DNA of 64,000 bases from Planctomycetota bacterium (lineage in GTDB: Bacteria; Planctomycetota; PLA2; JAEUHO01). The position numbers were made by a program, and so were the translations under genes. The DNA lies in assembly GCA_965222115.1 (NCBI GenBank), contig CBDCTJ010000001.1, forward strand, positions 576,001-640,000, in the 5' to 3' direction. Below the pieces are notes generated by a model, which saw nothing but the letters and a program-made list of their open reading frames with translations, was not told the origin of the DNA and searched no databases. Shown in pieces: positions 23,116-40,323 of this stretch. The first letter of the stretch is position 1. Every line of letters starts with the position of its first letter.

Positions 23116-23220
23116 GCTGGGCAGGGTGGGCGTTTCCAGCCGATACGCGAATTCTCTAGCGGCAATGAAATCGATAGCTTCGGTTTCCTACATAGCACGT
23201 GAACCCCTTGGAGAATCCCC

Positions 23221-23352
23221 ATGAAGGTCCTCGCGTTATTGCTGATTTCACTCTCGCTTACCGCGTGCGGTGGCGGTGGCGGCGGGTCTGAGCCAGCCAG
23301 CGTACCAAACCACTGGGATCAAATGGTGTGGGATCAAGGGTTATGGGAGTAG
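23221..23352 (+). CDS. 43-aa lipoprotein with a Trp-repeat C-terminus (not in the ORF track)
   Basis: GGAGA RBS; MKVLALLLISLSLTACGGGGGGSEPASVPNHWDQMVWDQGLWE*. Confidence 0.75.
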   Translation: MKVLALLLISLSLTACGGGGGGSEPASVPNHWDQMVWDQGLWE

Positions 23353-23407
23353 TTGGCAGCGGACCTGCGACTACGTCCTCGAACTCGACTCAAGTTGGAG
23401 AATCACG

Positions 23408-24034: not shown

Positions 24035-24037
24035 CAC

Positions 24038-24087
24038 GGATGCCGAGCCAGATGAGCTACCGGCCTGTTCATCTCATTTTGGTATCT
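24038..24087. repeat. REP-like hairpin bounded by the RGATRCCRAG motif
   Basis: GGATGCCGAG pairs with TTTGGTATCT; inner AGATGAGC/GTTCATCT stem. Confidence 0.6.
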
Positions 24088-24145
24088 TCGGTTTCCAACA
24101 AAACCGCTTGACAGGGCTAACCGTTTAGAGATGACTCGGTATCTT

Positions 24146-24433
24146 CTATGGTGCTTTGCGAATTCCAGCCCTTTGTTCATAGGAACGAAGCTCGCGCTCT
24201 AGTGTATGGGCAGTTCCAAGCTCTATTACGGTACCGTCGCTCGCCATTACGAGCAGAGGCCCGAGACCCAAGATACCTTGCAATTCGTCGCCAGTTTCTA
24301 CAGCGACCTTGGAATTGAAGCAGAACACCCACCCGTAGCTTGTCGGGTGCACGTAGGTTAGTGCCAACGGTATTCTCGTGAGAGAACTCGCGTGCTCTTC
24401 GGCCAGACTCTGGGCTTTGATGCGTGAAATCAT
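24146..24433 (-). CDS. YrhB/Imm35-like immunity protein
   Basis: YGWVFCFNS...LGLGPLLVMASDG...LGTA pattern; follows a Tox-PL-like tip. Confidence 0.75.
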   Translation of the reverse strand: MISRIKAQSLAEEHASSLTRIPLALTYVHPTSYGWVFCFNSKVAVETGDELQGILGLGPLLVMASDGTVIELGTAHTLERELRSYEQRAGIRKAP

Positions 24434-24441
24434 AAATTCTC

Positions 24442-24522
24442 CTAATTCGTTCTAGCGTACGAAATCCTGGCGAAACCGCGAAGATCAGCGCCTTTGGGCG
24501 ATTGCCCGTCAAGGTAGCGCTG
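24442..24522 (-). pseudogene. C-terminal remnant of a papain-fold toxin (Tox-PL-like)
   Basis: QRYLDGQSPKGADLRGFARISYARTN* directly upstream of the YrhB-like gene. Confidence 0.6.
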
Positions 24523-24537
24523 ACTCGGTATCTCCGC

Positions 24538-24765
24538 CTACCGAGGGAGCCACGATGCCTTGAGTATGCGTTCGCTGGCGTCCTCGATTTCGATTCTAGC
24601 GTTCATTCCTCGCGCATTCGTATTCGTGTGGACTTCCCAGATGATCGGACCAAAGAACAGCCAACGTCGCCGTCGCTTCACACGTACGGGCTCCTTCCAT
24701 AACCAACCACGTCGTTCGATCTCAACCCTAGCAATCACTTCTGCACGAACTCGATCTATTGACAT
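24538..24765 (-). CDS. Hypothetical small protein (possible immunity)
   Basis: GAGGAG RBS, 75 aa, inside the cassette array. Confidence 0.55.
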   Translation of the reverse strand: MSIDRVRAEVIARVEIERRGWLWKEPVRVKRRRRWLFFGPIIWEVHTNTNARGMNARIEIEDASERILKASWLPR

Positions 24766-24776
24766 AGCCGTGCTCC

Positions 24777-24986
24777 TCACTCAGCCGAGACGGCGTATTT
24801 GACGTCACCCACGATGATCATCGCCCCAGTCGCCTCACCGACAACGCGCCTCAGCGACACGTACGAAGTCGGTCTTCTTAGCGGGAATCGTATCGCATCG
24901 GGAAGACCCTTGATGCCGCACGCCCGCGGTTGCGCATCCGCCTCTGCTAGGACCTCCTCGAGATAGCGATACAAGTGCGAGCGCTG
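24777..24986 (-). pseudogene. 5'-truncated gene fragment
   Basis: Open frame without a good start, cut at AGATATCAAG (24987-24996). Confidence 0.35.
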
Positions 24987-24991
24987 AGATA

Positions 24992-25147
24992 TCAAGAGAA
25001 TCGATCGCCTAGGTCGATGCCAATTGTCTCGATGATGCGTTTATGCATGCTGGTAGTTCCTCCTGGGCCGTAGAACCCGTTGTTTATTTGCAGCACGATT
25101 TACCGTGACAGCGTGACAGGGGAACTACCGGCCTTTTCACCCCATCT
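24992..25147 (-). mobile_element. IS110-family left end and first codons of the transposase
   Basis: AGGAGG RBS, MHKRIIETIGIDLGDRFS* (IS110 RuvC-like first Asp motif); leader hairpin GGTAGTTCC/GGAACTACC. Confidence 0.65.
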
Positions 25148-25155
25148 CGGTATCT

Positions 25156-25485
25156 TCATCTTGACTTCGAAATTTCGGCAGCCAACTTGTAGGCGAGGCT
25201 GTAGTACATTTCATAATATGGAGAGTCGTTTGGCACATATTCAATCGCTTCGAGACTAACGATCAATCCAGTAGAAGCTCGAAAATCCCTTATGGCCTTG
25301 GTAACCGCCTCCAAAACGCGCGCTGGTTCGACGCTAGACGAGTTATCCTCACGCACCCTAGCTAGCGGAATCAACCTCGGTGGCGAGTCGTTTTCACCCA
25401 ACGCGGGCACTAGGCCGAGGAGAACATGTCGCAACCCGCTGTCAAACATTGCGCGAAATGAGTTACCGCTACGATAAATCTTCAT
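25156..25485 (-). CDS. Hypothetical protein (possible orphan immunity)
   Basis: GGAGG RBS with TAATG overlap to a vestigial upstream stop; bounded by the motif on both sides. Confidence 0.6.
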   Translation of the reverse strand: MKIYRSGNSFRAMFDSGLRHVLLGLVPALGENDSPPRLIPLARVREDNSSSVEPARVLEAVTKAIRDFRASTGLIVSLEAIEYVPNDSPYYEMYYSLAYKLAAEISKSR

Positions 25486-25525
25486 TACTTGCCCTCCAGC
25501 GGATACCAAGCCGCGTATCCTTCAC

Positions 25526-26395
25526 GATACCAAGCCGCGTATTTTCCCACCAACTTCGTGACCTATGCCCCGCACCACATGATGCGGATCTAACAGCTTC
25601 AATGTCCGCGCAAATTGATCCTGCCGCTACGCGAAAGTCTTCTCTATGGCTATTGTCAAGAGTTCAGATGCGTGCAATGCGTAGTTCGAATGTTGCTCGA
25701 TGAGTTTGTGATGGAGTGCGCGAAGACGCCCGACTGTGCTTGTGCTCGCATCAGTCCATCTTGATGCAGCTGCGATTACGAAGCGAGATCGACCGAGCAT
25801 CCCATCGCGTCGATTTGGTCTGTTGAACCAGCGCGTGTATGCATTTCCAATGCGCATCATCGCATAGGACAGCGTTCCCTCGTCCGTACGCGCCATCAAG
25901 TGATAGTGAGAGCCAAGTAAACAGAACGCCTCTGGCCGAATCTCGTCACGACGCCGCGCACACGCGAGGAATGCTTGGAACTGACGACGATCTCGCGGTC
26001 CCGCGAACATCAAACGCTTGCTAATCCCTCGCATATAGATGTGATGACGAACACCCGGACCGTCGAATCGATTGCGCTTGCCCATATACGTAACTACGCG
26101 CAGCGCGCGAAATGGTCACACGTACGGGCGGTGTCAGGCTCTTGCGGTCAGCGCGGTGAGTCGAAAGTCACGAAGTTGGTGGGAAAAAACGCGGCTTCTA
26201 TGAAAAGGCCTTGCATGTCAAGTGCGAAGCCGCGTCGGCGAGCGCATTTTCCGCGTTGTATATGTGCACATCGGCCCCTTGAGTACGCAACTTACCCTTA
26301 TCGCCCTTGCCTTTTTGGCAGCGGATCGGAGCGAATCAAATTGCCAGCCATCGTCACTGGCGCCAGAAAACACGTCCCATTCAGGCTTGGTATCT
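25526..26395. mobile_element. Non-autonomous RAYT element, copy 1
   Basis: Terminal IR GATACCAAGCC/GGCTTGGTATC; 31-bp IR 25532-25562/26167-26197 (30/31) around the transposase. Confidence 0.75.
25627..26085 (-). pseudogene. REP-associated tyrosine transposase (Y1/HUH), internally deleted
   Basis: HHIYMRG, AFCLLGSHYHL (HUH), YTRWFN..RRDG; catalytic YxxxNP region absent. Confidence 0.8.
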
Positions 26396-26398
26396 GTT

Positions 26399-26713
26399 TC
26401 ATCCTGTGCGTAGGTGCCTCACTTGCCGCAGGCGACTAAGAGTATCGCGCAGAGCCGCTGCCCTTTGCGTCTCGTTCACATACAGGAGAAACTTTGCGTT
26501 CTGATGACTTGGCTCCGTCCACTCGTCCTCGAAGGAGTCGTAGTTTGGCTGGAGCACAAAGTGCTCTCCCCCAGATGTTCCTGCTCGATAATAGTCGCCG
26601 ACCCATGAACTTTCATGGAGACTCATCGCGAGTCCGAGCCCCTGCTCGACAATCACCCTAGCGTCCTCAAGAGTGGATGCAGTGATACCATAGAGTGAGT
26701 AGTTGGTGTTCAT
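26399..26713 (-). CDS. Putative immunity protein
   Basis: ATGA-coupled to the toxin tip; HESSWVGDYYR motif. Confidence 0.7.
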   Translation of the reverse strand: MNTNYSLYGITASTLEDARVIVEQGLGLAMSLHESSWVGDYYRAGTSGGEHFVLQPNYDSFEDEWTEPSHQNAKFLLYVNETQRAAALRDTLSRLRQVRHLRTG

Positions 26714-26984
26714 CGGACTCCAATGCTAGGTGATCGTGCCGCAGCCTGGGCCGCAACTCGGTAAACCATGAAATTTACGGGTCGGCCAGCCATCTTCTCG
26801 AGTGATCGCTGTAGACTACTCAGGCCAAGCGACTGAATTTCGACGGGGAGTAGCGGCCCAGTCCGCGTTCCCTTGGACCGTAGGCCAACCCCAAGCCTCG
26901 CGGCAGTGTCAAACAGCGACTCGCTCGCGAGGGCGATGTCGAAGTCGCTGACTCGGCCCACATCGAAGGGCTCGTGCGGAGGCC
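26710..26984 (-). pseudogene. Orphan polymorphic-toxin C-terminal fragment
   Basis: PFDVGRVSDFDIALAS...GLRSKGTRTGPL...GRPVNFMVY; begins at the RAYT element edge. Confidence 0.65.
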
Positions 26985-27086
26985 AGATACCAAGCCGCGT
27001 TTTTTCCCACCAACTTCGTGACCTATGTCCCGCACCACATGATGCGGATCTAACAGCCTCAATGTCCGCGCAAATTGATCCTGCCG

Positions 27087-27569
27087 CTACGCGAAAGTCT
27101 TCTCTATGGCTATTGTCAAGAGTTCGGATGCACGCAGTGCGAAGTTCGAATGTTGCTCGATGAGCTTGTGATGGAGTGCGCGAAGACGCCCGACGGTGCT
27201 TGTGCTCGCATCAGTCCATCTTGATGCCGCTGCGATTGAAAGCCCGGCATAGCTGCACAACATTCCGATTCGAAGTACTTGCCATGCATCGCGTCGATTT
27301 CGCCTGTTGAACCAGCGCGTGTATGCATTTCCAATGCGCATCATCGCATAGGACAACGTTCCCTCGTCCGTACGCGCCATCAAGTGATAGTGAGAGCCAA
27401 GTAAACAGAACGCCTCTGGCCGAATCTCGTCACGACGCCGCGCACACGCGAGGAATGCTCGGAACTGACGACGATCTCGCGGTCCCGCGGACATCAAACG
27501 CTTGCTAATCCCACGCATATAGATGTGATGACGAACACCCGGACCGTCGAATCGATTGCGCGTGCCCAT
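27087..27569 (-). pseudogene. REP-associated tyrosine transposase, internally deleted (different breakpoint)
   Basis: Near-identical N- and C-termini to copy 1 with a different middle. Confidence 0.8.
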
Positions 27570-27675
27570 ATACGTGACTACGCGCAGCGCCCGATATGGT
27601 CACACGTACGAGGCGGTGTCAGACTCTTGCGGCTGGCGCGGTGAGTCGAAAATCACGAAGTTGGTGGGAAAAAAC

Positions 27676-27916
27676 GGCTCTACTGCTCTTTGTGTGGGTC
27701 GTGATTTGGTGATTTCTTGTCCTGCCGCCCCTAAGAGGGCGCGGACGGCAGGAAAAGAAATGATGTTGGTGAGATTGGGCTGTCACAAACTTGTGGGGCC
27801 GTGCGAACCCAGCTACTGAGCCGTTCAAAGGCGCAATTTTTCATGTTGTTGGCGTGTAGTGGCCGCCTCGGATCCAATACGATGCTTCCGTGACCCACAT
27901 GAAGAGCAGGAGACTC
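27676..27916. mobile_element. MITE-like insertion, probably ISL3-derived
   Basis: Imperfect TIR GGCTCTACTGCTCTTTGTGTGGGTC / GACCCACATGAAGAGCAGGAGACTC; 8-bp duplication GAAAAAAC; absent from copy 1. Confidence 0.6.
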
Positions 27917-28137
27917 GAAAAAACGCGGCTTCTATGAAAAGGCCTAGCATGTCAAGTGCGAAGCCGCGCCGGCGAGCGCATTTTCCGCGTTGTATATGTG
28001 CACATCGGCCCCTTGAGTACGCAACTTACCCTTATCGCCCTTGCCTTTTTGGCAGCGGATCGGAGCGAATCAGATTGCCAGCCATCGTCACTGGCGCCAG
28101 AGAACACGTCCCATTCAGGCTTGGTATCTCGGTATCT

Positions 28138-28335
28138 CCGGTAGTACGTGTTGGGCGTCACGCCCAGCTGCTTGCAAATCAACCCTACTTTCGTGCCTTT
28201 TAGCTCAATCTTTGCCTGTCTCAGCATCCCAATAATCTGCTCCGTCGAGTACCGCTTCCTTGCCATCTGTTTGCTCCTGATCGAAAAGGTGTATCCGAAC
28301 AAGTGGCACGCTCTGAGGGGGGGGGGGGCAGGTCA
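28138..28335 (-). mobile_element. IS3-family remnant (left IR plus start of orfA)
   Basis: TGACCTGCCCC end; MARKRYSTEQIIGMLRQA...ICKQLGVTPNTYYR truncated at AGATACCGAG. Confidence 0.75.
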
Positions 28336-28360
28336 CGCGTTAAGAGATGAATCGATATCT

Positions 28361-28786
28361 TTACTCCTGCCACGAGGAGACATCACACAACTCCAAATTG
28401 AAATTCTCTAAAATTCTTAACAGCCGCTGAGACACTATCAGCTCATGCGAAGAATCGACGCCAGCGTCATCATGCCCGGACTCTCCAGTGATAAACAACC
28501 TTCTAAATTTCGGAACTACCAAATCAGGATCGAACTCAGATTGATCTCTATGGACTGTTGTTTTCATGGATCCTATAGAATACCCAGTCAAGTTCGCGTC
28601 CTTAAGTGCGTCGCTCAATCGCGGTGTAACCGCATAACAAGGAAAGCACTCCACCAAATCGTCGCCAGACCAGTTAGAGATTTCCAGATGAAATGCACTC
28701 ACGTCTGGAGGATGAATCGATGTGTCAAGTTGCGACATCACTCCCAATTCACCTGGCACGTCTGGCGTAAGACGGAAGAAATTCAT
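28361..28786 (-). CDS. Putative cognate immunity protein
   Basis: 4 nt after the toxin stop; PDVPGELG...DTSIHPP...WSGDDLVECFPCYAVT pattern recalled from immunity genes beside nuclease toxins. Confidence 0.7.
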   Translation of the reverse strand: MNFFRLTPDVPGELGVMSQLDTSIHPPDVSAFHLEISNWSGDDLVECFPCYAVTPRLSDALKDANLTGYSIGSMKTTVHRDQSEFDPDLVVPKFRRLFITGESGHDDAGVDSSHELIVSQRLLRILENFNLELCDVSSWQE

Positions 28787-28790
28787 AGGA

Positions 28791-31700
28791 CTACCTCACC
28801 GGTGGCACGAACAAATGTCCGTATCGATTGTCAATTGTAGTAGCAAAGTCCAATAGATCCTGCTTTGAAGGACGAGGATTCGCCTTGTACCAGCGATTCC
28901 ATTCCTTTCGAATCGCACTCAAGTGTAGCTTGGAATTGAGCTTCTTCGGGATGCCCCGAAGATTCTCAAGAGAGTGCAGTTCATTGCCTGATAGCTTGAG
29001 GTGCGGGTAACGCCTTTGCACGCTCTGCTCTACCGCATGATGAACCACGACCTTGCCGCGAAGCTCAGGATTCGCCTCAAAGAATGTCTTGCGATAGTCA
29101 ACACGCGTCGCATTGCCAAATTTTGCTCCCGCCTCAGAAGTGGTTGAACGCCTTACCTTCCTCTTTCGAGTAGCCTTCATCCTCTTTACCTTGACTTGCT
29201 TTTTCGAATCGGGTCCTCGATCTGGCTTGTCCGGCTTCTTCGGAGGCTTACTCGGCGGTGGTGCCGAACTACCCGGCTGCGGGACGCCCTCTGGCTGCTT
29301 GGCTTCGGGGGCCTTACGTCGTCTTGTCTTATTGTTATTCGGAGTGCCTATTGGACGAGGCTTTGAGCGCCTTCTTCTAGCCGTCGGCACCGGCGTAGAC
29401 TTAGGACTGCCAGGAGGTCGCTTTATGACCTTCGTCTTCTTTGCGACCGGTGCACTAGATGCTATGGCCTTTGCAATATCAGATTGTTTCAACTTTCCCA
29501 GCTTGCTGGCAACGGCTTTGCCAAGTTTCCCGACAGGGATGAGATCACCAAACGCCGAGATAATCAAAGAGTTCGGCACCGGCTCATGCTTGAGCATTTT
29601 CGCGCCGATCTTTGCAATATCGCTACCGCTCACTTCACCGACAACCTCAAGTACCTCAGCTACGTCCGCGGACTTCTGCTTGGCGAACGTCTGAACGCTC
29701 TTTGGTAGGAGCGACCGAGCCGCTTTTGCGACATCACGTATCGCCTTGGGGCCATACGTGCCTGGAGGACGCGACACACAATCCAGTTTGGCATTCGCCG
29801 GAATGCGAATCACCTGTTCGTGCTTACCAGCCTTGTACTGTAGGTGTTTTTCGTAGTAATTCTTGGCATCGGTGCCGCGCATGGCAAACACAGCGCCGGC
29901 CAAAAGGAAGTAGACGACGTAATCTCCTCCCTCATCAGTCCCCCCACTCAAGTAGTACATCGTTATCTTCTGCCTATCGCGCACTTCTCCAACTGTTGTA
30001 CCCTTCTCGCAAGCCTTCTTGGCAAACTCAACTTGCTCGTGAGGAAACGTCATCCCGGACTCTCCCGAGGGGGCCCTGGGAGGTTTGATGGGAGGCGGAG
30101 GTTTCTTGGTGGGAGGAGGAGGTGGTGGCGGCGAATCAACTCCACCGTACCCATGCCCCGCTCCGGGAGGAGATACGCGGTTGCGGTGCCCGCCCGCATC
30201 GCTTTTACCGTCGTTCTCATCGCTCGATTCAGGAGGAACAACCGGAGGCTTAAGAGGAACAGCGATTGATGTCGTAGGGCCTTTTGCACCGCCGCCTGCT
30301 CCCGCCCCAGGCGCCTTCTCCTTGGCTTTAGGCGGCTCATCCGGATCACTCGTACACTCGCACTTTCCGGGAGGCGGGCAGGTTTCTATACACTTTTTCT
30401 TGGCCTCCTGGAGCTCCTTATCGCACTTCTTCTTGAACTCTTCTTCGCGCTTCTTTTTGCGCTTTTCGAGATCGTCTTTCTCTTGTCCTTCATTTCCCTC
30501 AAGAGGCTTGTCATATCCATTTAGCTCATCGAGGCGGGCCTCTTCATCCGCGGTTTGCTCTGCACGTAGTTCAGATAGTTCCTGCTCAGCGGCCTTCTTC
30601 TCGTCCTTGCTAGCCTCGGGATCGTCCTTGACCTTCTGAAGCGCGTCCATCCTATTATCGCGACGGGTGCGCTCCTTCTTTCTCAACTCATAGCGCCTGT
30701 CTTTTCGATCGCGACGCTGCTTAGCACGCCTTTTGAGCTCGTCGAGTTCCCTCTGTCGTTCACGCTCAGATAGTTCGAGTTCCTTCTTCCTGCTCTTCTG
30801 CTTTGGGCTCAACTTGATCCCAAGATCTTCAGACGATCCAAGAGACTCTTTCTCCAAGTTCTCACGGTCGAGTTGATACTCACGAAAATCGTCACGCACT
30901 GCTTCGCGCGAATCGATATCTCGCTCGCGTCTCATGCGCGCATCACCCGTTCGGCTTCGATTGTTACGAATACGTTCGCGCGCCGTGGATCGCGCACTAC
31001 GTGCGACGTTAGAGGCCTCTCTCCTCCTCTTGCGCAGATTTCTACTTCTTGTGGCACTATTAGGCGGGCGACGTGCTTCTTTCTCAAGGTGCCTAAGCTC
31101 GGCTTCCATAGCACGAGAAGCTGCTTCGTACTCTCGACGTGCCTGTTGGGATAATTCGTTCTTGCCGGTAGTTGCCGACTTCATGGCTTCGAGACTGTCG
31201 CGAACATCATTCTTGGCAGATTCTAAATCCGATCTTGACAGATCCATCTTGTTCCTGAGCATATTCAAATGCGAATTGACCTTCAGTCGTGTTTCTTCAA
31301 GATCCGAGAAGTCATTCCCTGTCTGTTCGTGATCTTCTCGTCGAGCACCTTCGACTGACGACTTCGCCTGACTCTCTCGAAACCGGTCTTCTTTTCGCTT
31401 GACTAGATCGCTCAGCTTGTCTCTTGCAAGCTCAAAAGCCGCTCTAGCTCTGTGATAGTTCCACATGACGAATGTCCGTTTCGCAACCGCCCGACCAAGT
31501 TCGACCCCCGGACTGCTCCCTCCTCCACCTCCGCCACTTGGAGTAGAGGCAACCAGCCCCCCTGGAGCGCGAGATTTGTAGTTTCCCGCTACATATCGAT
31601 CCTCTGCAAGAGGAGCTGGCATCTGAACATTGCTCGGAGGCAGAACTCCGCCCTTAGTTCCAGGCTGGAGCGCAACACGTCCACCCAAGTAGTCTCCAGG

Positions 31701-33788
31701 CATACGTGCAAGACTCTTACTTGCAGTAGTATTGTGTTGGCGGCGCGGCGAATTCCGAACGAGTCGCCCAATGCCAGAGGAAGCGGTGGTAGGTTTGCCT
31801 GGATGCGAAGAAGGGGCGAGTGCTTGAGCTCTCGCGAATCGTGGCGTAGATGGTGCAAGCGGACGCGGTGCTCCATATCGCGCTACGCGAACTTCGGCCT
31901 TGGATGGTATTGGCGCACGCGTTGAACGCGAGATCGTGGGACCTCCGAACGAACTAGCAAGATCGTATGGTCCCTTCTGACGAATTGGCTTTGCTGATTT
32001 GTTGTATGCATTGAGTGCTCGAGCTTTCGCGAATCGTGGCGCAGATGGCACAATCGGACTCGGTGTCCCATATCGTGCTGCGCTAACTTCGGTCTTGGAA
32101 AGTTCTGACGCATGCGTTGAACGCGAGATTGTGAGACCGCCGAAAGAACCAGTACTCTCGTATGGTTCTTCCTGACGCGCTGACTTTCCTGATTTATTGA
32201 ATGTCGCGTTCGCTAGGTGCCGCGAGTTACCCAACTGGCGAGAAGACCGAGTGCCACTCGGGTTAGCTGAGTAGTACTCAAGACTTGATGAATCAAAGTC
32301 ATAAATCTCGGAATGAAGCTTGAACAGCGGATGCAGCTCGATCGGCTCTTTCACTATTCCAGCCTGCTGCCCGGGGGGCTTCTCTATTCGCTGAAGACTC
32401 GGAGAAGGACCTGAGGGGCTCGAACTACTATTGCCTAAGCGACTCTCTTCTAATCGAGTGGACTTGTAATTTGACGGAGATTCGACAGGCGTTTTCTCTT
32501 GGCGCTCTAGGAGCGGGTTACGCCCACGACCGCCACCGCCTCCTCCTCCGCCGCCACCTCCGCCGGCGCCGCCGCCACCTCCACCTTGATCATCGTCATC
32601 ATCGTCGCCCGACTCCGGTTCATCGGGTACATTCGGATCAAGGCGCGCATCAAAATCATAAATTTCCCAATCGCGAGTAATCCACTCAAGAAACGGACCA
32701 ACCATGGGCCACCCAAGGCCTAGGGGCGCAAAGGCAGGTCCAAGTAGAGGCAAAAATTCCAAGCCGCGGCGGTTATCAATCTCGATTGCTCCGCTACCAG
32801 CGTCCTCGGTTCGAGAGAGATAACGATGAGCTTCGGCTATCTGATCCCCCGAGAGACTTCGATTACCTTCTAGCAGTCGCTGCTCGAACCCTAGAGAACT
32901 AGTCACTTGCGCAGTAGAGTCCACACGAGTGAGCGTGTGTAAATCTTCGATTGCGCCAAGTCCACCGTCAATCTCAAGTGGCGCGGGAATGAGTGCTCGT
33001 GGCTGCTGCAGAAAATTTTCGGGAACTGAAATGGTGACGCCAGCGTCAATTGGATTCGTCCCGGTCGAAGTAGCTATGAACTCGAACGGCTCCTCAGGAA
33101 GAGGTAAGGGTTTAGGGACGGGCATGACGGGAAATACATCTTGCGGAAACACACCCATCGGAAACATATCTAGGAGAGATACGGCCTCTTCGGGTTCGCG
33201 GATGCACTTGCACTCAATGTTGCACTGACGCTCGGCTTCTTCAGCGGGCTTCTTGTCCCCGTCTTCACCTCCACCACCCCCCTTCCCACGATCCTGAATC
33301 TCAAGACCGCGAGACTTGAACTCCCCAGAGGCAGCAGGAACTTCAGGATCCGCCTTCTTTCCAACGACGCGCCGCCGCGGGCGCTCATTAGCACCCGATG
33401 ACCCATGATAATTACTCGAAGCAACATCTGACGGCGATTCGACCTCAGCGCTACCCGAGCTACTCCCCATTGCTGCATCCGAGGTGTGCGCGCGAGGCGT
33501 TTGCTGCAACAACTCTTGCAACATGGTTGGGCTGGATTGCCCAGGCAGCATGACGCCGCGCGTTTCCGAGGAGAACTGCCCCTCAATGACGTCGGTTCCA
33601 CGCGGGCCCAAATCATCTGGGCTAGGAACGACGCGTGAATAGGCCGCACGAACCCCCGCCCTTCGTTTGGAAGGGCGGAGGGTTGCTACGGTACCGTCGG
33701 GAAGTTCACATTTTTCGCTACGTCCAGCGTATCGAGTGTCTTTACTACCGAGACAGGACTTACATCCACATGCACTACTAAGATCCAC
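28791..33788 (-). CDS. 1665-aa putative polymorphic toxin with a C-terminal HNH/EndoVII-like nuclease tip
   Basis: Tip VVVHHAVEQ...LHSLENLRGIP...LHLSAIRKEWN; charged coiled coil, low-complexity linkers, Cys clusters; immunity gene downstream. Confidence 0.75.
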   Translation of the reverse strand: MDLSSACGCKSCLGSKDTRYAGRSEKCELPDGTVATLRPSKRRAGVRAAYSRVVPSPDDLGPRGTDVIEGQFSSETRGVMLPGQSSPTMLQELLQQTPRAHTSDAAMGSSSGSAEVESPSDVASSNYHGSSGANERPRRRVVGKKADPEVPAASGEFKSRGLEIQDRGKGGGGGEDGDKKPAEEAERQCNIECKCIREPEEAVSLLDMFPMGVFPQDVFPVMPVPKPLPLPEEPFEFIATSTGTNPIDAGVTISVPENFLQQPRALIPAPLEIDGGLGAIEDLHTLTRVDSTAQVTSSLGFEQRLLEGNRSLSGDQIAEAHRYLSRTEDAGSGAIEIDNRRGLEFLPLLGPAFAPLGLGWPMVGPFLEWITRDWEIYDFDARLDPNVPDEPESGDDDDDDQGGGGGGAGGGGGGGGGGGGRGRNPLLERQEKTPVESPSNYKSTRLEESRLGNSSSSPSGPSPSLQRIEKPPGQQAGIVKEPIELHPLFKLHSEIYDFDSSSLEYYSANPSGTRSSRQLGNSRHLANATFNKSGKSARQEEPYESTGSFGGLTISRSTHASELSKTEVSAARYGTPSPIVPSAPRFAKARALNAYNKSAKPIRQKGPYDLASSFGGPTISRSTRAPIPSKAEVRVARYGAPRPLAPSTPRFARAQALAPSSHPGKPTTASSGIGRLVRNSPRRQHNTTASKSLARMPGDYLGGRVALQPGTKGGVLPPSNVQMPAPLAEDRYVAGNYKSRAPGGLVASTPSGGGGGGSSPGVELGRAVAKRTFVMWNYHRARAAFELARDKLSDLVKRKEDRFRESQAKSSVEGARREDHEQTGNDFSDLEETRLKVNSHLNMLRNKMDLSRSDLESAKNDVRDSLEAMKSATTGKNELSQQARREYEAASRAMEAELRHLEKEARRPPNSATRSRNLRKRRREASNVARSARSTARERIRNNRSRTGDARMRRERDIDSREAVRDDFREYQLDRENLEKESLGSSEDLGIKLSPKQKSRKKELELSERERQRELDELKRRAKQRRDRKDRRYELRKKERTRRDNRMDALQKVKDDPEASKDEKKAAEQELSELRAEQTADEEARLDELNGYDKPLEGNEGQEKDDLEKRKKKREEEFKKKCDKELQEAKKKCIETCPPPGKCECTSDPDEPPKAKEKAPGAGAGGGAKGPTTSIAVPLKPPVVPPESSDENDGKSDAGGHRNRVSPPGAGHGYGGVDSPPPPPPPTKKPPPPIKPPRAPSGESGMTFPHEQVEFAKKACEKGTTVGEVRDRQKITMYYLSGGTDEGGDYVVYFLLAGAVFAMRGTDAKNYYEKHLQYKAGKHEQVIRIPANAKLDCVSRPPGTYGPKAIRDVAKAARSLLPKSVQTFAKQKSADVAEVLEVVGEVSGSDIAKIGAKMLKHEPVPNSLIISAFGDLIPVGKLGKAVASKLGKLKQSDIAKAIASSAPVAKKTKVIKRPPGSPKSTPVPTARRRRSKPRPIGTPNNNKTRRRKAPEAKQPEGVPQPGSSAPPPSKPPKKPDKPDRGPDSKKQVKVKRMKATRKRKVRRSTTSEAGAKFGNATRVDYRKTFFEANPELRGKVVVHHAVEQSVQRRYPHLKLSGNELHSLENLRGIPKKLNSKLHLSAIRKEWNRWYKANPRPSKQDLLDFATTIDNRYGHLFVPPVR
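31818..32207 (-). repeat. Tandem 195-bp (65-aa) intragenic duplication
   Basis: SFGGxTISRST...ARYGxP...PRFAxAxAL twice. Confidence 0.85.
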
Positions 33789-33797
33789 GGCTAATCC

Positions 33798-34157
33798 TTA
33801 CGGTTGGCGATTAATGAAAAAACCCTGCAACCAACAGGTCACTCCTGGACTCGTACCGTTCAGGATGACGGCCACACGAAACCATCTCTTGGATAGTTGA
33901 AAATCAATTGGCTCTTCTCTGTCTTCTAGCGGTTCAACCTGCGAAGTCCCCGCGACCATTTGCCAGTCGCCGCGATCCGTAGACTCCAACACCTCAACCT
34001 TAAACGTTGTCCCTGTGCCAACCAGAGGACCGCGCCATAGGTAGAGCTTTGCCTCTTCATAAGCGGAAACATCGATAGGTAATGTTTCGTACCGCAACGC
34101 GCCAGCAAACGCAGTAAACCGAGGAATAAGAACTGCAGGGGTAACAATCTTTGTCAT
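33798..34157 (-). CDS. 119-aa beta-rich protein, paralog B
   Basis: GGAGG RBS; LIPRFTAFAG, WRG, ESTD..W, KRWFR, CW..GF shared with paralog A. Confidence 0.85.
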   Translation of the reverse strand: MTKIVTPAVLIPRFTAFAGALRYETLPIDVSAYEEAKLYLWRGPLVGTGTTFKVEVLESTDRGDWQMVAGTSQVEPLEDREEPIDFQLSKRWFRVAVILNGTSPGVTCWLQGFFINRQP

Positions 34158-34174
34158 TGCGAGGCCTCCAATGG

Positions 34175-34199
34175 GCGCGCCCCGGTACGCGGGGCGCGC
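34175..34199. promoter_or_regulatory. Intercistronic GC hairpin
   Basis: GCGCGCCCCG-GTACG-CGGGGCGCGC, no U tail. Confidence 0.55.
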
Positions 34200-34223
34200 A
34201 ATGATTGAGTGCGTACGCCGCGA

Positions 34224-34583
34224 CTACGTCTGCCGCAACTCGAGGAAGCCAATTGCCCAACATGAAGCACCTTGCGACGTGCCCGTGAGCGTGACTTTGG
34301 CGCGGAACCAACGCTTCTTGAGTTCTGGCGTGTACTGAGCTTCTGTTTCGGAACCGGGATCGGCAGATGTACTTCCCGTACAGGTTGTCCAACTGTCTTG
34401 GTCCGTTGACTCTTCAAACGCAATTGAGAAGCTTCCTGCATTGTCCAGCAACTTGCCTCGCCAAGTATTGACGATGGCCTTGGAATACTCTGTAACGTCC
34501 ATTGCAATGGTCGTAAACGTCGAGTCGCCTGCATACGTCGTGTATCGCGGAATCAGAACGAGTGGAATGAGTTCTCCAGCCAT
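34224..34583 (-). CDS. 119-aa beta-rich protein, paralog A
   Basis: AAGGA RBS; LIPRYTTYAG, WRG, ESTD..W, KRWFR, CW..GF. Confidence 0.85.
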   Translation of the reverse strand: MAGELIPLVLIPRYTTYAGDSTFTTIAMDVTEYSKAIVNTWRGKLLDNAGSFSIAFEESTDQDSWTTCTGSTSADPGSETEAQYTPELKKRWFRAKVTLTGTSQGASCWAIGFLELRQT

Positions 34584-34691
34584 AGTGATTATCCTTTCGC
34601 CGTCGGTGTCAAATGAACACAGCCACCATCACCCGACGGTCGGCACGAGAATCGACGCTACCGACGCTTCAAAAAACGCCGACTCCACTAG

Positions 34692-35228
34692 TTAATGACG
34701 CGCCATGCCCCTAAAAATTGAATTGGACGAATTCGAGCGCCTCAACGCGCGAGCAGCTCTGTCAATGCACCTACGAAATGCACTTGGATGTATTCCAAGT
34801 AGCCGAGCAGCACCGTCAATGGATTCGGACGCCATGTAAGCATCGAGCGCTTCCCGTTGACGACCCGTAAGTTGCTCACCACGGGAACGTACAACATCAC
34901 GCAGACTTACCATGCCCCTTGATTGCCGCATCGGCATCGACTCACTTGCCGCGATGGAGTCGTGTGCATTTCGACTTAGTACCCGCACCTGCTCCCTCGC
35001 AACATTCCGCGCCACCATTCGCAACCATCCGTCCGACTCAAGCTTCTCCGAATCGTCCTCCGCACTCACATAGCGCTCCCACACTCGAACACACGTCTCC
35101 TGCAGCACATCTTGTTGATCGTGAGGCTGAAGGCGATAACGCCTCGCCTCTTGATCACAGAGCTGCGCAAGTCTCGGGAGCCTCTGCTCGAACTCCCTAG
35201 CTCTCACCCGAAGACTTCCATTCTTCAT
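34692..35228 (-). CDS. ECF-type sigma-70 factor (start uncertain; ORF extends to 35330)
   Basis: DQQDVLQETCVRVW, WLRMVARN (region 2); LTGRQREAL...AARLLGI (region 4). Confidence 0.75.
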   Translation of the reverse strand: MKNGSLRVRAREFEQRLPRLAQLCDQEARRYRLQPHDQQDVLQETCVRVWERYVSAEDDSEKLESDGWLRMVARNVAREQVRVLSRNAHDSIAASESMPMRQSRGMVSLRDVVRSRGEQLTGRQREALDAYMASESIDGAARLLGIHPSAFRRCIDRAARALRRSNSSNSIFRGMARH

Positions 35229-35470
35229 TATCAACACCAATCTGTAATCATGAGAAGCACCGATAGACACACCGCTCCCCCACGCGAGCTCAAATCGCGT
35301 TCTTTCATGAGCGGCGATAACTTCAACCAACGCGCACTACAACGACGGCGCGCAAAGACGCGACCGACTGAGATCACCTACGAGGTGCGACCCTCAATAA
35401 TCACAAAACCGGATCCCAGCCGGTCGCACAAGTTACTGTTGCAAGCACACGATCAGGTTTGATCGAAGCG

Positions 35471-36433
35471 CTACGCGTCACCCCCATGGGCCTCGTCACG
35501 TGGCGACGCATTCGACGCAGACTCCTGCGCGCGCCGGCGAAGCGCTGCTAACCGATTCGAAAATCGCAGGCGATCGTTCTTCACTTCACGTAGCCATGCA
35601 CTCGCTTCCGCTCGATGAGGCTCGGGCAGCGAGAGAACAACACGTCGAGCTTCGTCAGCAAGGCCACTCGCAGATAACAAGCCAACTCCTCGCTCACGCG
35701 CGTACTGGAACGCGTCGAAGTCCAGGTCGATTGTGGCTGGCAAGTTGTGGCGATTCTTGGCGTCCCATGCGTTGCTTCGCTCGGTGTGGAGCACACGCCG
35801 GCACGGCTCGTTCTCGCTTCCGGACTTCGCGTCGGACAATCCACACGAAATGTAGTTCGCAAAGAGAAGCATGTCGCACCAGTCCTTGATCAAACCGTAG
35901 CACTTGGGATGGAGCCGTCCTTCGTAGCGCGCGTAGTCGTCGCCGAGTGGATTGGCGAAGTTCTTGGTTCCCACATGGGCAATCGAGATGATCTCAATGC
36001 CGTTGAGGGTGCGCAGTGCATCGAGCATTCGCAGCAAACGGCGCCACTCGGAAAGGGCGGCAATGTACCCCTTACCGTAACCAGGGGTTTCAATCGACTC
36101 CCACCCATAGAGTTCGCACAGGTGATCCCAAATCAGACACTCGACCCAGTCGAGCGAATCAAGAACCAGCGTCTTGTAGTCGGATTCGGCAACGGCGGCC
36201 ACGGCATCCAACACGTCGCTAAAGGTCTTGGCTTCGGGGAAGCGAGGCACATCGAGGTAGCGCAGGCCATCCTCGGATGAAATAAACACAGGACTGGGGA
36301 ACTTGCTAGCAAACGTCGATTTGCCCACACCCTCTACACCCTGCAATACGATGCGATCGGCACCAGGCCGTATGCCACGCGTGACACGCGTGAGCGTCAT
36401 CCTTTTCCGCGGACTGACAACACTGTTCATCAT
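35471..36433 (-). CDS. Phage-type AAA ATPase (Sak4/AAA_24-like)
   Basis: GVEGVGKSTFAS, TLVLDSLDW, GYGKGY, EIISIAH, AKNRHNLP. Confidence 0.85.
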   Translation of the reverse strand: MMNSVVSPRKRMTLTRVTRGIRPGADRIVLQGVEGVGKSTFASKFPSPVFISSEDGLRYLDVPRFPEAKTFSDVLDAVAAVAESDYKTLVLDSLDWVECLIWDHLCELYGWESIETPGYGKGYIAALSEWRRLLRMLDALRTLNGIEIISIAHVGTKNFANPLGDDYARYEGRLHPKCYGLIKDWCDMLLFANYISCGLSDAKSGSENEPCRRVLHTERSNAWDAKNRHNLPATIDLDFDAFQYARERGVGLLSASGLADEARRVVLSLPEPHRAEASAWLREVKNDRLRFSNRLAALRRRAQESASNASPRDEAHGGDA

Positions 36434-36512
36434 GTTTTGATCTCCATCTCGATTGGGTCATACGTCGTTAAAGTGAAAGCGCGCAATACCACTGCGCGCG
36501 AAAGACATGGGG

Positions 36513-36914
36513 TCATGGGTCGCACTCGTTTTCGATGTGATGCAGCACGGCTCCTTCAAACCACTTGCGGCGCCCGCTCTGACTGGCGGAATCGACCTTG
36601 ACGAGTCGGCATCCGACTTGTAGCGACTCAAACCGCTTCCAATAGCGGTACCAATGCTGCCGAGTCATGCCGAGCTGCGCCGCGCACCAGGTGGCATCGC
36701 GCAACGGAAGCGTGCAATAGTCAGGTAGTTCAGTAGCGCGCGCGTTTGGCTCGACGTCATGCGTTGATCGCCCACTTCCAACAGCGACCTGATTCATCGC
36801 ATCGGCATCGACGCCTGTTCGATCACATGGTGTTCGGTCACGTGGCGTTCGATCTCCCGGATCCGGAAGCCCGGCGGACAGCTCGTGTGGCAGATGGGGT
36901 TGTTCAGCGTACAT
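36513..36914 (-). CDS. Hypothetical protein with a possible excisionase/Cro-like HTH
   Basis: DATWCAAQLGMTRQHWYRYW; divergent from the XRE gene. Confidence 0.5.
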   Translation of the reverse strand: MYAEQPHLPHELSAGLPDPGDRTPRDRTPCDRTGVDADAMNQVAVGSGRSTHDVEPNARATELPDYCTLPLRDATWCAAQLGMTRQHWYRYWKRFESLQVGCRLVKVDSASQSGRRKWFEGAVLHHIENECDP

Positions 36915-36919
36915 ATCAA

Positions 36920-37035
36920 CACACTAACGTATTTTTGCCTCACTGTCGAGCATATTTACCTTTTTTATGTATTTAGATACGGTAAATTAGTCCTAATCGG
37001 TTGACATCTCGCGCCCCTGCCCTTGGAGTCTCTTC
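36920..37035. promoter_or_regulatory. AT-rich divergent promoter/operator region
   Basis: ATTTACC(20 nt)GGTAAAT inverted repeat at 36954-36987; TTGACA at 37001. Confidence 0.5.
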
Positions 37036-37419
37036 GTGAGTACAACGAAAGAATGGCCCTGGCACGCCAAGATTCAGGCCGAGCGCGGGCGCCGGGGCTG
37101 GACCTATGCCCACGTAGCGCGACGGGTAAAGGAGGAGTCGAGCCTCACTCGTCGCTGGCTGCGGGGAGAGACGCGACCTCGTGGTGACGTCATTCCGAAG
37201 TTTGCAAAGCTCATGGGCTGGCCCATTGCCTATTTGATGGATGAGAACAAACCGTATCCGCCGGAGATGGACGACGACTGGCGAGAAGCGGTCCTGGATG
37301 GCCTTGATGAGCATCGTACGCGCCTCATGAATGCGATGGCGGATGATCAGGCCGTGGCGTATCTGGTGAAGGCGCTTGATCAGTTTGAGGATCTTCGCGA
37401 GTCGTTGGGCGAGGATTAG
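37036..37419 (+). CDS. XRE-family HTH regulator (phage repressor-like)
   Basis: RGWTYAHVARRV...TRRWLRGETRPR...KFAKLMGWPIAYL. Confidence 0.75.
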   Translation: MSTTKEWPWHAKIQAERGRRGWTYAHVARRVKEESSLTRRWLRGETRPRGDVIPKFAKLMGWPIAYLMDENKPYPPEMDDDWREAVLDGLDEHRTRLMNAMADDQAVAYLVKALDQFEDLRESLGED

Positions 37420-37933
37420 GTGTGTAGCAGCGACTTGCCTTGAAGGCTTCACGCGGCGCCGCGACAATGGCGACCCATTGACGAATTACATACTGTCGGA
37501 TGGCAATCTGGCGCGCCCGATCTTCAGGCGTTGAGCCCGCGCTCAATGAGGCTCCGTGCGCTACGAGCCGATCCTTGGAGTCTATGAGGCTGGCGGAATC
37601 TTCGCGTGCATGTTTACCGTAATCAGGATCTCGCCGCCGGTCCGATTGCTTACCAACGCTGTTTTCCTTGGATTCGTTGGATTCATTAGAATCACTACCG
37701 CCGCTCTCTCGTCCGCGTTTGTTTGACACATGTGCTTCGTTTCCGGCCGCTTTCCCTCTCACCTAAGAGGGCCGAGAGGTTCCCAATGGCTCTCTGCGGA
37801 GGAACCATCTTAGGCATGGGGGCGACACTAACAAAATACTAATCAAGTGTTTGACCAATTTACTCAATATATTGTGGGCAATGGACTTATGTCTACTACT
37901 CAGAGTGCCTGATCTCTCCAGGAGAACCTCAGA

Positions 37934-38725
37934 CTACTCGCCTCGTAGGCGCTCAACCTCCCGCTCCAGGTCGGCAACCCGAGCGGCGATCGAGGGGTGA
38001 CCGTCCATGAGTTGATGTGCCCGGAACGCAGTCTCAAGCGTCGAGATCTTGGCGTACACCTTGTCCAGATCACGCTCCGCTTCGGGCCGACCGTAGTCCT
38101 CGTTTTCTACGTCCTTCAACCGTGCGGCTAAGGCCCCGAGCTCTCGTAGGGCATCGGATCGAGTGAAGCGATTCCCGCCAATGTCGGCGAGTGTTTCTTC
38201 CGCGTGATTCAAGCGAGTTCGCAACTCACGCATCGGACCATTCGTAACGCGTTTCTCAACATTATCGATGGCTTGACTGAGCAGCTCTTTGGTTGCAGCA
38301 AGTTGCATCTTGTGATTTCGCTCCCACCCCGCGGTGCGGACTTCAAGCTGACGAAACGCTTCGTCTTCGCGACCGTCTTCCCGAGCACGCACGAGGTCGG
38401 CCGCATGGCTGACCTGAAGGGAAGACTCGTGACGTGCAAGCGTATCGATATAGCCTGTGGCTCCGAGCCGCACAATCGCCGTGGTAACGGACATGACAAG
38501 ACCTGCCGCGCCAATGATCCAACCCCAGTTGATGGGACGACGCGAATGCTCCGCGAGTTCTTTGAGCTCGCGAGCAAGCTTTTCAAAGTTGCGCTCCAAG
38601 TTTCCGAGTCCTGCTTGAACCTCGGCTTTGAACGACTCGAGATCGGTCTTGAGGCTGCCTATGCTGGTGTTCTTCGATGTTGTGCTAGTTGCCATAGTGT
38701 TCATCCCCCACGGGTGCCTCTGCAC
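37934..38725 (-). CDS. Coiled-coil membrane protein (phage-like)
   Basis: Heptad repeats with one TM segment (WGWIIGAAGLVM). Confidence 0.65.
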   Translation of the reverse strand: MQRHPWGMNTMATSTTSKNTSIGSLKTDLESFKAEVQAGLGNLERNFEKLARELKELAEHSRRPINWGWIIGAAGLVMSVTTAIVRLGATGYIDTLARHESSLQVSHAADLVRAREDGREDEAFRQLEVRTAGWERNHKMQLAATKELLSQAIDNVEKRVTNGPMRELRTRLNHAEETLADIGGNRFTRSDALRELGALAARLKDVENEDYGRPEAERDLDKVYAKISTLETAFRAHQLMDGHPSIAARVADLEREVERLRGE

Positions 38726-39023
38726 GAGATGACGCTACGTGTGCCTCGCGCACCGCTTGATCGATGGCCTCTTCTGCACGCCAGACACGAACGCTTGGCT
38801 TCGTGCGATGGTCGTAGAGCAGCTTGAGCCAAACGCCGAGGAGTGATCCCAACCCCGCCGACCACTTGATCCATGGCAACTCAGGCCAGAAATGAGCGGC
38901 GACGAGCGCAAAGAAGCCGAGCGTGGCGATACACGCGGGCGGAAATCCACTACGCATCCATAGTGACGATGGCTTGGGTCTACATGCATGGCTTACAGGC
39001 TCGTGGTTCATTTTCGTTTCCAT
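38685..39023 (-). CDS. Small 2-TM protein (holin-like size)
   Basis: Two hydrophobic segments; overlaps both neighbours. Confidence 0.5.
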   Translation of the reverse strand: METKMNHEPVSHACRPKPSSLWMRSGFPPACIATLGFFALVAAHFWPELPWIKWSAGLGSLLGVWLKLLYDHRTKPSVRVWRAEEAIDQAVREAHVASSRAEAPVGDEHYGN

Positions 39024-39475
39024 AATCCGTATCCAAGTACCTGGCCGTTCTCTGACGTCATGCGCAGCGTCCGCTTATCGCCAGCGCTTCCGGAAACCGG
39101 CCACCATGAATGGGTCGTGGTCCCATCGCGCTGAAGAGTTACGTCGTTCTCCGGTCTTCCGATTGACTCGCGAAACGCATCTACCGTTTCTGCGCGCGCG
39201 GCGGCCCGCACGCGATCGTAGGGAATCGCGTCATTTGGAAGTGGTCCGCTCTCTTGATCGGGAGGTGGAACTACTTCCGGTATCGGTATCAAGTCGGGCT
39301 CAAAGATCACGTCGGGATTGGGTGTCGGGGGAGAGACATCGGGCGCGGGTTCGATGTGGGGTTCAACCGGTGGATCGACGACCACAATCTCGGGTTGCGT
39401 AGTGCACGCAAACGTCGCGAATGCGAACACCAGCACTACGCTTCGCTTGATCAGACTTGCTGACTCGTATGTCAT
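39008..39475 (-). CDS. Pro-rich lipoprotein
   Basis: Lipobox TFAC, Pro-rich linker, small alpha/beta C-terminal domain. Confidence 0.7.
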   Translation of the reverse strand: MTYESASLIKRSVVLVFAFATFACTTQPEIVVVDPPVEPHIEPAPDVSPPTPNPDVIFEPDLIPIPEVVPPPDQESGPLPNDAIPYDRVRAAARAETVDAFRESIGRPENDVTLQRDGTTTHSWWPVSGSAGDKRTLRMTSENGQVLGYGLWKRK

Positions 39476-39476
39476 C

Positions 39477-40313: not shown

Positions 40314-40323
40314 GCGATCACGC

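Follow-up and report, generated by a model that had tools for sequence, protein, structure and literature searches.

A candidate polymorphic toxin-immunity module with small jelly-roll proteins, found so far almost only in Planctomycetota

Introduction

Polymorphic toxins are sorted by the route on which they travel, namely type V, type VI and type VII secretion systems (T5SS, T6SS, T7SS), extracellular contractile injection systems (eCIS), phage heads, and others. The locus described here raises the question of how such a toxin might travel when it carries none of the known vehicles. It lies in a stretch of 64,000 nucleotides (nt), called the window below, of a Planctomycetota bacterium (GenBank assembly GCA_965222115.1, contig CBDCTJ010000001.1, positions 576,001 to 640,000) and comprises a sigma factor-like gene, two genes for proteins of 119 amino acids (aa), b119_1 and b119_2, a gene for a giant protein, and a small acidic gene. 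An initial annotation made from the sequence alone had proposed a new polymorphic toxin system at this place. Our analysis indicates that the locus is probably a polymorphic toxin-immunity module with an accessory set of jelly-roll proteins, which has so far been found almost only in Planctomycetota. What is new is the fixed partnership of the giant protein with a jelly-roll array and with Cys clusters, without a known vehicle. The module is not described in the literature we covered on polymorphic toxins, Planctomycetota, jelly rolls, and cement proteins; the supplementary lists of PMC3482391, which lay outside that coverage, may hold such toxins.

Results

A C-terminal tip shared with many delivery modules

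All five open reading frames (ORFs) described by the initial annotation as closely spaced and co-oriented were located on the minus strand, with gaps of 108, 66, 9, and 4 nt in the order of transcription. The giant protein ends in the His-containing tip that had been quoted (...VVVHHAVEQ...LHSLENLRGIP...LHLSAIRKEWN...). We searched residues 1545-1665 against 1.84 billion representative proteins (clusters at 50% identity) and obtained 894 representative clusters at E ≤ 0.001, 181 of them at E ≤ 1e-30. Among the matches listed, the proteins were 110 to 2559 aa long, and by eye the match lay within 10 residues of the C-terminus in about 145 of 150, the ones that did not end there being P0219, P0230, P0248, P0274, and P0285. 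The tip family starts at a conserved junction, A-x-F-G...Y-R-x-T-F-F (window 28794-29156; proteins P0136-P0285).

When 70 full-length relatives of the tip were scanned with Pfam, they were found to carry RHS_repeat (7), T7SS_signal (5), WXG100_2 (3), DUF6531 (3), eCIS_core (2), PT-HINT (2), PAAR_motif (2), prePAAR (2), Pyocin_S (1), and PT-TG (1) domains. The tip is thus fused to many delivery modules, and it therefore appears to be a toxin cassette that moves between delivery systems; judged by these sequence relationships, it can be regarded as a toxin module. No Pfam model covered the tip itself, with none matched there by two or more of the 70 proteins, and a scan of 35 tip relatives at E ≤ 5 found no toxin family. 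This work thereby flags a putative toxin domain that is widespread (the 894 clusters mentioned above) and for which Pfam has no model.

Alignment of 35 tips revealed invariant columns at H39, N65-L-R-G, P70, H78, W86, and Y90, with H40 nearly invariant; H39/H40, N65, and H78 correspond to H1583/H1584, N1609, and H1622 of the giant. In the AlphaFold2 (AF2) model of the tip, whose predicted local distance difference test score (pLDDT) is 93.3, these residues are carried by a strand (36-40), a second strand (66-70), and a helix (71-92), and this strand-strand-helix order is, as modelled, the arrangement of a beta-beta-alpha metal finger. HNH enzymes (the SspE C-terminal domain, McrA, Gme, the pyocin AP41 DNase, and others) were among the Foldseek matches at non-significant E values of 0.6-5.5. 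On the model and the invariant residues, the tip would most likely act as a metal-dependent nuclease of the HNH/EndoVII type. Because the fold and profile searches gave no significant match, the designation "HNH-like nuclease" is well motivated and should not be read as a result.

An array of jelly-roll genes in front of a giant protein

The two 119-aa proteins had been taken for twin beta proteins, and they are indeed paralogous (39% identity, E 3e-32); the AF2 model of b119_1 (pLDDT 92.8) is all-beta and forms a single jelly roll. We found 195 relatives of b119_1, which all resemble it in length and carry no Pfam domain. Identity to b119_1 ranges from 56 to 77% among the 120 listed, and relatives with a named source come from Planctomycetota. 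As for longer forms, one 218-aa protein was found, on a contig of 836 nt, which is uninformative.

By scanning one genome per species, we obtained 29 further loci, nearly all from metagenome-assembled genomes (MAGs) of Planctomycetota, and several genomes carry two or three of them. The 119-aa genes stand in tandem arrays of 2-5, and in most loci a copy of the b119_2 class follows the first class. In 27 of the 29 loci, at least 2 kb of sequence lies past the array, and each of these 27 has, on the same strand, an open frame of 319 aa or more that begins within 500 nt of the array. A motif of the C-x-C type, defined by a loose pattern, is present in the first 140 residues of this frame in 23 of the 27 loci, against a background of 30 of the 254 ORFs that these loci hold at 120 aa or more, the giants themselves included. 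In two of the four misses (L017 and L024), a long same-strand ORF begins slightly further downstream, and that of L017 opens with a Cys motif. The longest same-strand frame reaches at least 900 aa in 22 of the 27 loci; several giants are cut by contig ends or split into two or three frames. Relatives of the 119-aa proteins thus recur in tandem directly 5' of long proteins with variable tips, which is the pattern that the initial annotation had suggested looking for. The hallmark of the module is this set of 2-5 tandem, conserved 119-aa jelly-roll paralogs in front of the toxin.

When the phylum was sampled evenly, the 119-aa family was matched in 28 of 401 genomes (17 of 243 among those of high quality). 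The matches cluster in a small number of families, single genomes having as many as 11, and the distribution is patchy and multi-copy, as it is for conflict systems. The window genome has this locus only and no further copies of the module.

Divergent 119-aa copies that face away from the array were seen on the minus strand in L007 (9491-9844), L010 (8728-9072), L024 (8148-8504), and L025 (7988-8299). The opposite-facing copies of L025 are followed on the same strand by ORFs of 326 and 1847 aa, which suggests back-to-back modules. Members of the family were also seen on contigs assigned to bins of Gemmatimonadota (L009, L029) and Thermoplasmatota (L027), which could reflect mis-binning or gene transfer; L029 carries the giant that is closest to that of the window at the N-terminus.

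The giant protein has no Pfam match, either as a whole or in six segments, in agreement with the proposal that it lacks a known delivery domain, and no known secretion domain was matched at its N-terminus. The initial annotation had described Cys clusters, disordered linkers, and a long charged coiled coil. In the giant, three Cys clusters lie at residues 7-12, 189-196, and 1122-1146, there are low-complexity stretches rich in G/P/S, and 40-70% of residues are charged between about 770 and 1130. The window giant aligns with the L001 giant at residues 807-1440 (26% identity, tblastn) and with the L029 giant at residues 5-98 (39% identity), and the L001 and L029 giants have an equivalent pre-tip stretch in common (27%, E 1e-17). 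The pre-tip region matched neither Pfam nor PDB sequences, and PDB sequence searches with the tip, the pre-tip region, and giant residues 190-400 returned nothing below E 0.1. Across loci, the giants consist of 40-58% G/P/S/A/T and 18-33% charged residues; transmembrane (TM)-like segments were absent from the window giant and not consistent in the others. The giants barely align to one another, yet they have the three Cys clusters and an RGKGGG motif in common. This motif and Cys cluster 2 were seen in giants or in split N-terminal ORFs across loci, and a mid-protein cluster comparable to cluster 3 was found in 15 of 15 giants examined. Conserved Cys motifs in proteins that otherwise cannot be aligned offer short candidate docking sites.

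Exchange of tips and of small downstream genes

Invariant C-termini in homologous loci would have spoken against a polymorphic toxin, and what we found is that the tips vary. Among 14 tips of other loci scanned for toxin domains, that of L001 is an Endonuclea_NS_2 domain (E 6.5e-13) and that of L028 a CdiA_C domain (28.7 bits, cut-off 26.6), with L021 just under the CdiA_C cut-off; the L019 tip matches DUF3238, and the remaining tips gave no match or a spurious one. The giants of L026 and L028, from one MAG, are 56-61% identical in their N-regions and have unlike tips. For the L026 tip, the match is in L003 (65% identity), a locus of another MAG whose giant has an unrelated body; for the L028 tip, it is in L021 (55% identity).

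The small ORFs downstream track the tips, being 62% identical between L003 and L026 and 45% between L021 and L028; they start 2-5 nt past the giant stop in L003 and L026 and within a few hundred nt in L021 and L028. At each of the 14 loci examined, the start of an ORF of 50 aa or longer falls -4 to +30 nt from the giant stop; given permissive start codons and GC-rich DNA, part of this count could be due to chance. The small gene past the giant of L029 (7967-8308) matches DUF6572 (E 7.8e-12), and DUF6572 may for this reason be an immunity family.

Candidate immunity gene and sigma gene

The small acidic gene that had been noted 3' of the giant was recovered with its gap of 4 nt, and its 141-aa product has an isoelectric point (pI) of 4.53, as against 10.5 for the basic tip. 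A homology search with this protein listed 14 proteins, the window's own first; one relative, at 37% identity and E 9.5e-20, has a match to Pfam Imm11 (4.8e-6), and a lead to Imm11 from Atlas was weak (0.82). In the passages of PMC3482391 drawn on here, Imm11 is listed as an immunity family for Tox-AHH, Tox-HNH, and Tox-SHH, three toxins that share the HNH/EndoVII fold, and planctomycetes figure among their carriers. The acidic Imm11-like protein probably serves to neutralise the toxin in the producer. It also matches phrog_32682 (E 3.3e-27), and despite this match a tblastn search of phage records found no relative.

As for the sigma gene, the initial annotation had placed the system under a dedicated ECF (extracytoplasmic function) sigma factor. 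The sigma-70 part of this assignment holds, with matches to Pfam Sigma70_r2 (E 8.7e-7, 29.1 bits, cut-off 24) and to phrog_1740, a sigma factor family (E 3.1e-9). The match to region 4_2 is weak and under the Pfam cut-off, and the NCBIfam sigma70-ECF model scored 32.9 bits, under its cut-off of 42.9. With region 2 above the cut-off, region 4 weak, and the ECF model below the cut-off, we therefore label the gene divergent and ECF-like. A dedicated sigma factor as a general part of the system had to be given up: besides the window, a sigma-like gene adjoins the array only in L001-L003 (3 of the 29 other loci, from two MAGs), and these genes have no sequence relation to the window sigma. Apart from these three genes, the upstream neighbours have nothing in common. 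Planctomycete genomes hold many ECF sigma factors each, and a sigma gene beside three other loci is therefore near what chance would give. The sigma gene is not a core or conserved part of the module; in the window, it may be a local regulator.

Features and surroundings of the window locus

The features of the locus and its parts are collected in Table 1. G+C is lower at about 24-42 kb of the window, and the module lies within that stretch.

Table 1 Positions of the genes, protein segments, and adjoining fragment of the locus in window coordinates
Feature	Position	Strand	Remark
Divergent ECF-like sigma-70 family gene, 212 aa	34692..35330	-	108 nt 5' of first jelly-roll gene
Jelly-roll gene b119_1, 119 aa, highly conserved class of the family	34224..34583	-	AF2 model, relatives
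Jelly-roll gene b119_2, 119 aa, second, more variable paralog class	33798..34157	-	39% identity to b119_1
Giant, putative polymorphic toxin, 1665 aa, one single ORF	28791..33788	-	No Pfam match
Cys cluster 1, SSACGCKSC, family pattern M-x-C-G-x-x-C-G-C-x-x-C	33699..33788	-	N-terminus
RGKGGG motif, then Cys cluster 2 (C-x-C-x-C; window CNIECKC)	33201..33290	-	Kept across loci
Cys cluster 3, CDKELQEAKKKCIETCPPPGKCEC, family pattern C..C..C....C-x-C	30348..30425	-	End of charged region 30399-31481
Ordered-looking pre-tip region, residues ~1246-1445	29454..30053	-	In common with L001 giant
Lys/Arg-rich linker before tip	29139-29438	-	Basic composition
Putative toxin tip, residues ~1551-1665, H1583 H1584, N1609, H1622	28794..29138	-	HNH/EndoVII-like candidate nuclease
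Candidate immunity gene, 141 aa, pI 4.5, distant Imm11-like	28361..28786	-	Starts 4 nt past toxin stop
IS3-type transposase HTH_Tnp_1 fragment, E 1.8e-7	27952-28302		Directly past immunity gene

Downstream of the module, the initial annotation had seen an orphan tip/immunity array. We found no giant-like sequence there and instead two transposase-like repeats and an insertion sequence (IS) fragment; a comparison of 22000-28360 with the C-terminal 500 residues of the giant, and with its DNA, returned nothing significant, and no orphan cassettes were present. The region 25526-28129 holds two copies of a repeat of about 0.9-1.1 kb, with blocks 96-98% identical, which encode proteins of 152 and 160 aa (88% identical to one another). 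These proteins weakly resemble the transposases known as REP-associated tyrosine transposases (E 4e-4, 20 bits, cut-off 80). Inverted repeats of 31 nt lie at 25532-25562, 26167-26197, and 26992-27022, and elsewhere in the genome the repeat ORFs have just two distant relatives, within open frames of 324-373 aa. The IS3-type fragment, with its helix-turn-helix (HTH) match, may mark a site where further cassettes were lost, and a 67%-identical piece of it was seen at the end of L003.

A phage-like stretch (35471-41640) lies 5' of the sigma gene, inside the lower-G+C region. It contains a Sak4-like gene (AAA_24, E 5.5e-42; phrog_124), an HTH_31 protein on the opposite strand, and a 263-aa ORF (37934-38725) for which Pfam gave nothing convincing and a papain-like match was weak (E 0.005); no integrase and no tRNA were found in it. 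None of the other 29 loci has the Sak4-like gene or the other window neighbours. A further very long ORF of the window, 1815 aa, lies on the plus strand at 55868-61315.

Discussion

The reading as a toxin-immunity system is strong because the tip is a mobile cassette, the tips swap between giants, and the small downstream gene co-varies with them; this also bears out the initial view of a polymorphic toxin locus without a known trafficking domain. Several observations weigh against the explanation as a whole. Pfam and NCBIfam models did not match the window tip, nor did its profile match PDB sequences, and the fold searches were not significant (Foldseek best E 0.63, VIA best Z 4.3). In 11 of the 14 other tips, no toxin domain was recognised. 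The link of the immunity gene to Imm11 is transitive only, because the window protein has no match to this family (PF07791, DUF1629) at E ≤ 1 and just 1 of the 14 listed proteins matches it. The jelly-roll matches cannot assign a function, since Z values of 8-12 are common for the fold. Neither the giant nor the jelly rolls showed a secretion signal or trafficking domain by Pfam and TM scan, no signal-peptide predictor having been run, and no secretion machinery recurs beside the loci, where no family occurs in more than 3 of 66 upstream ORFs. The ORFs of the other loci are crude calls on GC-rich MAG contigs, in which frame splits may be real or assembly errors. Finally, the window neighbours have a phage flavour (the Sak4-like gene, and the PHROG matches of the sigma and immunity genes).

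As to how the toxin would travel, gene order and conservation suggest a delivery that may rely on the jelly-roll paralogs. These could assemble into a hetero-oligomeric carrier, be it a ring, a fibre, or a small particle, on which the giant would dock through its Cys-rich motifs. The long flexible middle of the giant would be a stalk or tether, and the tip would be delivered to, or released near, competing cells, with kin protected by the immunity protein. Both the binding of jelly rolls to the giant and an export along this route are conjectural. A complex prediction with b119_1, b119_2, and giant residues 1-100 is evidence neither way, because the control scored as high as the complex. We tentatively propose, with the odds against it, that the array and the Cys clusters form a new trafficking or presentation apparatus exapted from cement proteins, in which the giant is fixed through Cys residues (by metal, or by disulfides outside the cell) and the toxin is tethered on a stalk without known secretion systems.

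The suggestion of cement proteins comes from several weak but convergent sequence links to such proteins of phage capsids. phrog_5707 matches b119_1 at E 0.0014 and b119_2 at E 0.017, and it matches the cement protein Bbp16 in the genome of phage BPP-1 at 5.4e-10. With hhalign, the 119-aa family gave E 0.052 against Bbp16 directly and E 0.0016 (16% probability) against a ten-sequence Bbp16 profile that includes the epsilon15 homologue, both runs aligning the same two strands. In BFVD, b119_1 is best matched by uncharacterised Caudovirales proteins equal to it in size (E 7.6e-7, TM 0.76/0.70), the nearest Atlas clusters are viral (0.94-0.95; Pfam Bbp16 on 13% of members in one), and the BPP-1 cement protein 3j4u_H is matched in fold at Z 8.7. 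Remote descent of the jelly rolls from phage cement or decoration proteins is likely.

The same links, together with a 2052-aa protein in the structural block of BPP-1 that holds bbp16, and with the Sak4-like gene and lower G+C next to the window locus, could mean that the locus is a phage structural remnant or cargo. In that case the jelly rolls would serve as capsid cement or decoration, and the giant would be carried inside the virion or ejected from it, comparable to toxins packaged in phage heads; its tip would act in infection or superinfection, and the phage or phage-like particle would be encoded elsewhere. We regard this as unlikely. No relative of the 119-aa proteins was found in IMG/VR contigs or 50,697 phage records, the Pfam Bbp16 model PF21190 had no match anywhere in the window genome at E ≤ 1, and the family profile had none in BPP-1. 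The families that recur among the 66 upstream ORFs (the upstream side being the one scanned) include no capsid, portal, terminase, or other phage structural family, and the Sak4-like gene and its companions are peculiar to the window. The tips and immunity genes, moreover, swap as in interbacterial toxins. The jelly-roll genes are not inside a phage today.

An intracellular abortive-infection system would make a different use of cement-like jelly rolls: on sensing or binding phage capsids during assembly, they would set free the tethered nuclease, which the acidic protein, as antitoxin, otherwise restrains. The remote relationship to cement proteins and the missing export signals would fit, as would the patchy, multi-copy, island-like distribution and the integrase, resolvase, PIN domain, and AbiEii-like ATPase found upstream in single loci. 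Such a system is nevertheless improbable, in view of the tip family being fused elsewhere to export modules (RHS, PAAR, T7SS, eCIS, pyocin) and of the EssD-like and CdiA_C-like tips at other loci; it is also hard to see what a cytoplasmic sensor would do with 1100-1900 mostly disordered residues and conserved Cys clusters.

About as improbable is a release by lysis, in which the jelly rolls would be oligomers that perturb the membrane of the producer, like XepA of the PBSX lysis cassette, and not a carrier, and the giant would escape from sacrificed cells in the manner of colicins and S-type pyocins. The best solved structures matched to b119_1 by VIA are indeed XepA (Z 11.6, 108 residues aligned) and YomS (Z 10.9), ahead of a GOLD domain (10.3), Ena2A (10.1), Ena1B (9.8), and PirA (9.6). 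In the part of PMC6834076 cited here, XepA and YomS are pentameric and cytotoxicity is given for XepA only. Lysis would also explain the missing export signals, one tip relative is fused to a Pyocin_S domain, and the nearby sigma factor could limit expression to a few cells. The likeness is, however, in fold only, at Z values common among jelly rolls; no holin or endolysin recurs among the 66 upstream ORFs, and 2-5 distinct paralogs and the conserved Cys clusters of the giant are left unexplained.

That the array and the giant are mere neighbours, the giant using some planctomycetal export route, general or as yet unknown, and the jelly rolls having an unrelated function, is very unlikely: gene neighbourhood alone is weak evidence of binding, but a long frame follows the array in every testable locus, Cys-motif starts far exceed their background, and the association holds where the giants have diverged beyond alignment, with a gap of 9 nt in the window.

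A toxin-immunity module with jelly-roll accessory genes would be a handle on interbacterial competition in Planctomycetota, a little-known field. If the jelly rolls are its carrier, it would add a mode of trafficking and a case of capsid-decoration proteins recruited for bacterial warfare.

Comparison with known systems

The cement protein Bbp16 of BPP-1 and its relatives in the epsilon15 group (PF21190, phrog_5707; 3j4u_H) resemble the 119-aa proteins in being single jelly rolls of similar size. They differ in that the 119-aa genes do not stand beside a major capsid gene but occur as 2-5 paralogs before a toxin gene, and in that the 119-aa family is absent from the phage collections searched and unmatched by the Pfam model. 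In BPP-1 (L043), bbp16 (18228-18650) belongs to the same structural block as bbp10 (6187-12345), which encodes the 2052-aa protein, with several genes between them; a small jelly roll and a giant protein are thus also found together in a real podophage.

XepA and YomS, from prophage lysis cassettes of B. subtilis, are likewise small, oligomeric, phage-derived beta domains linked to killing or lysis, and they are the best solved matches. Unlike them, the 119-aa proteins stand in no holin/endolysin context, and no sequence similarity was detected between the two groups; XepA, in addition, consists of two domains and has no giant toxin as its partner.

The Ena fibres of Bacillus, which are endospore appendages with an L-BclA tip fibrillum, are another case of small jelly rolls (Z 9.8-10.1) encoded beside a long protein. 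In the portion of PMC11362473 used here, the jelly-roll subunits form a fibre, and the neighbouring long tip protein is proposed to plug the terminal ring via an N-terminal double-Cys motif. Ena may serve as a model for the docking of the giant, by analogy and not by membership. The 119-aa proteins have no Pfam match to DUF3992, the family of Ena subunits, and lack the Cys-bearing N-terminal connector, the family alignment showing no Cys within the first 60 residues. Ena moreover belongs to Bacillus, whereas the module belongs to another, non-sporulating phylum, and the long protein of the module bears a toxin in place of a collagen/C1q knob.

Among toxins, Tox-AHH and Tox-SHH with Imm11 come closest to the window tip and its neighbour. 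The motif of Tox-AHH, quoted as "[AG]HH, N, H, H, Y" in the text of PMC3482391 consulted, resembles the window tip, which has HH at a strand end followed by N, H, and Y, and an Imm11-related gene lies 3' of the window toxin as well. The window tip differs in its VHH motif, in having no Pfam match, and in fold searches that are not significant.

Finally, the polymorphic toxin systems at large (Rhs/PAAR-T6SS, LXG/WXG-T7SS, CdiA-T5SS, eCIS, and S-pyocins, as far as the sections of PMC3482391 used here describe them) also have a swappable C-terminal toxin and an immunity gene directly 3'. The tip domain of the window occurs on RHS, PAAR, T7SS, eCIS, and pyocin proteins too, and tips and immunity genes swap together in the module loci. 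The module differs from these systems in that its giant has no known trafficking, repeat, or pre-toxin domain and in that no orphan cassettes follow it in the window (22000-28360), and it is set apart by the fixed jelly-roll array upstream and by the three Cys clusters within a mostly disordered body.

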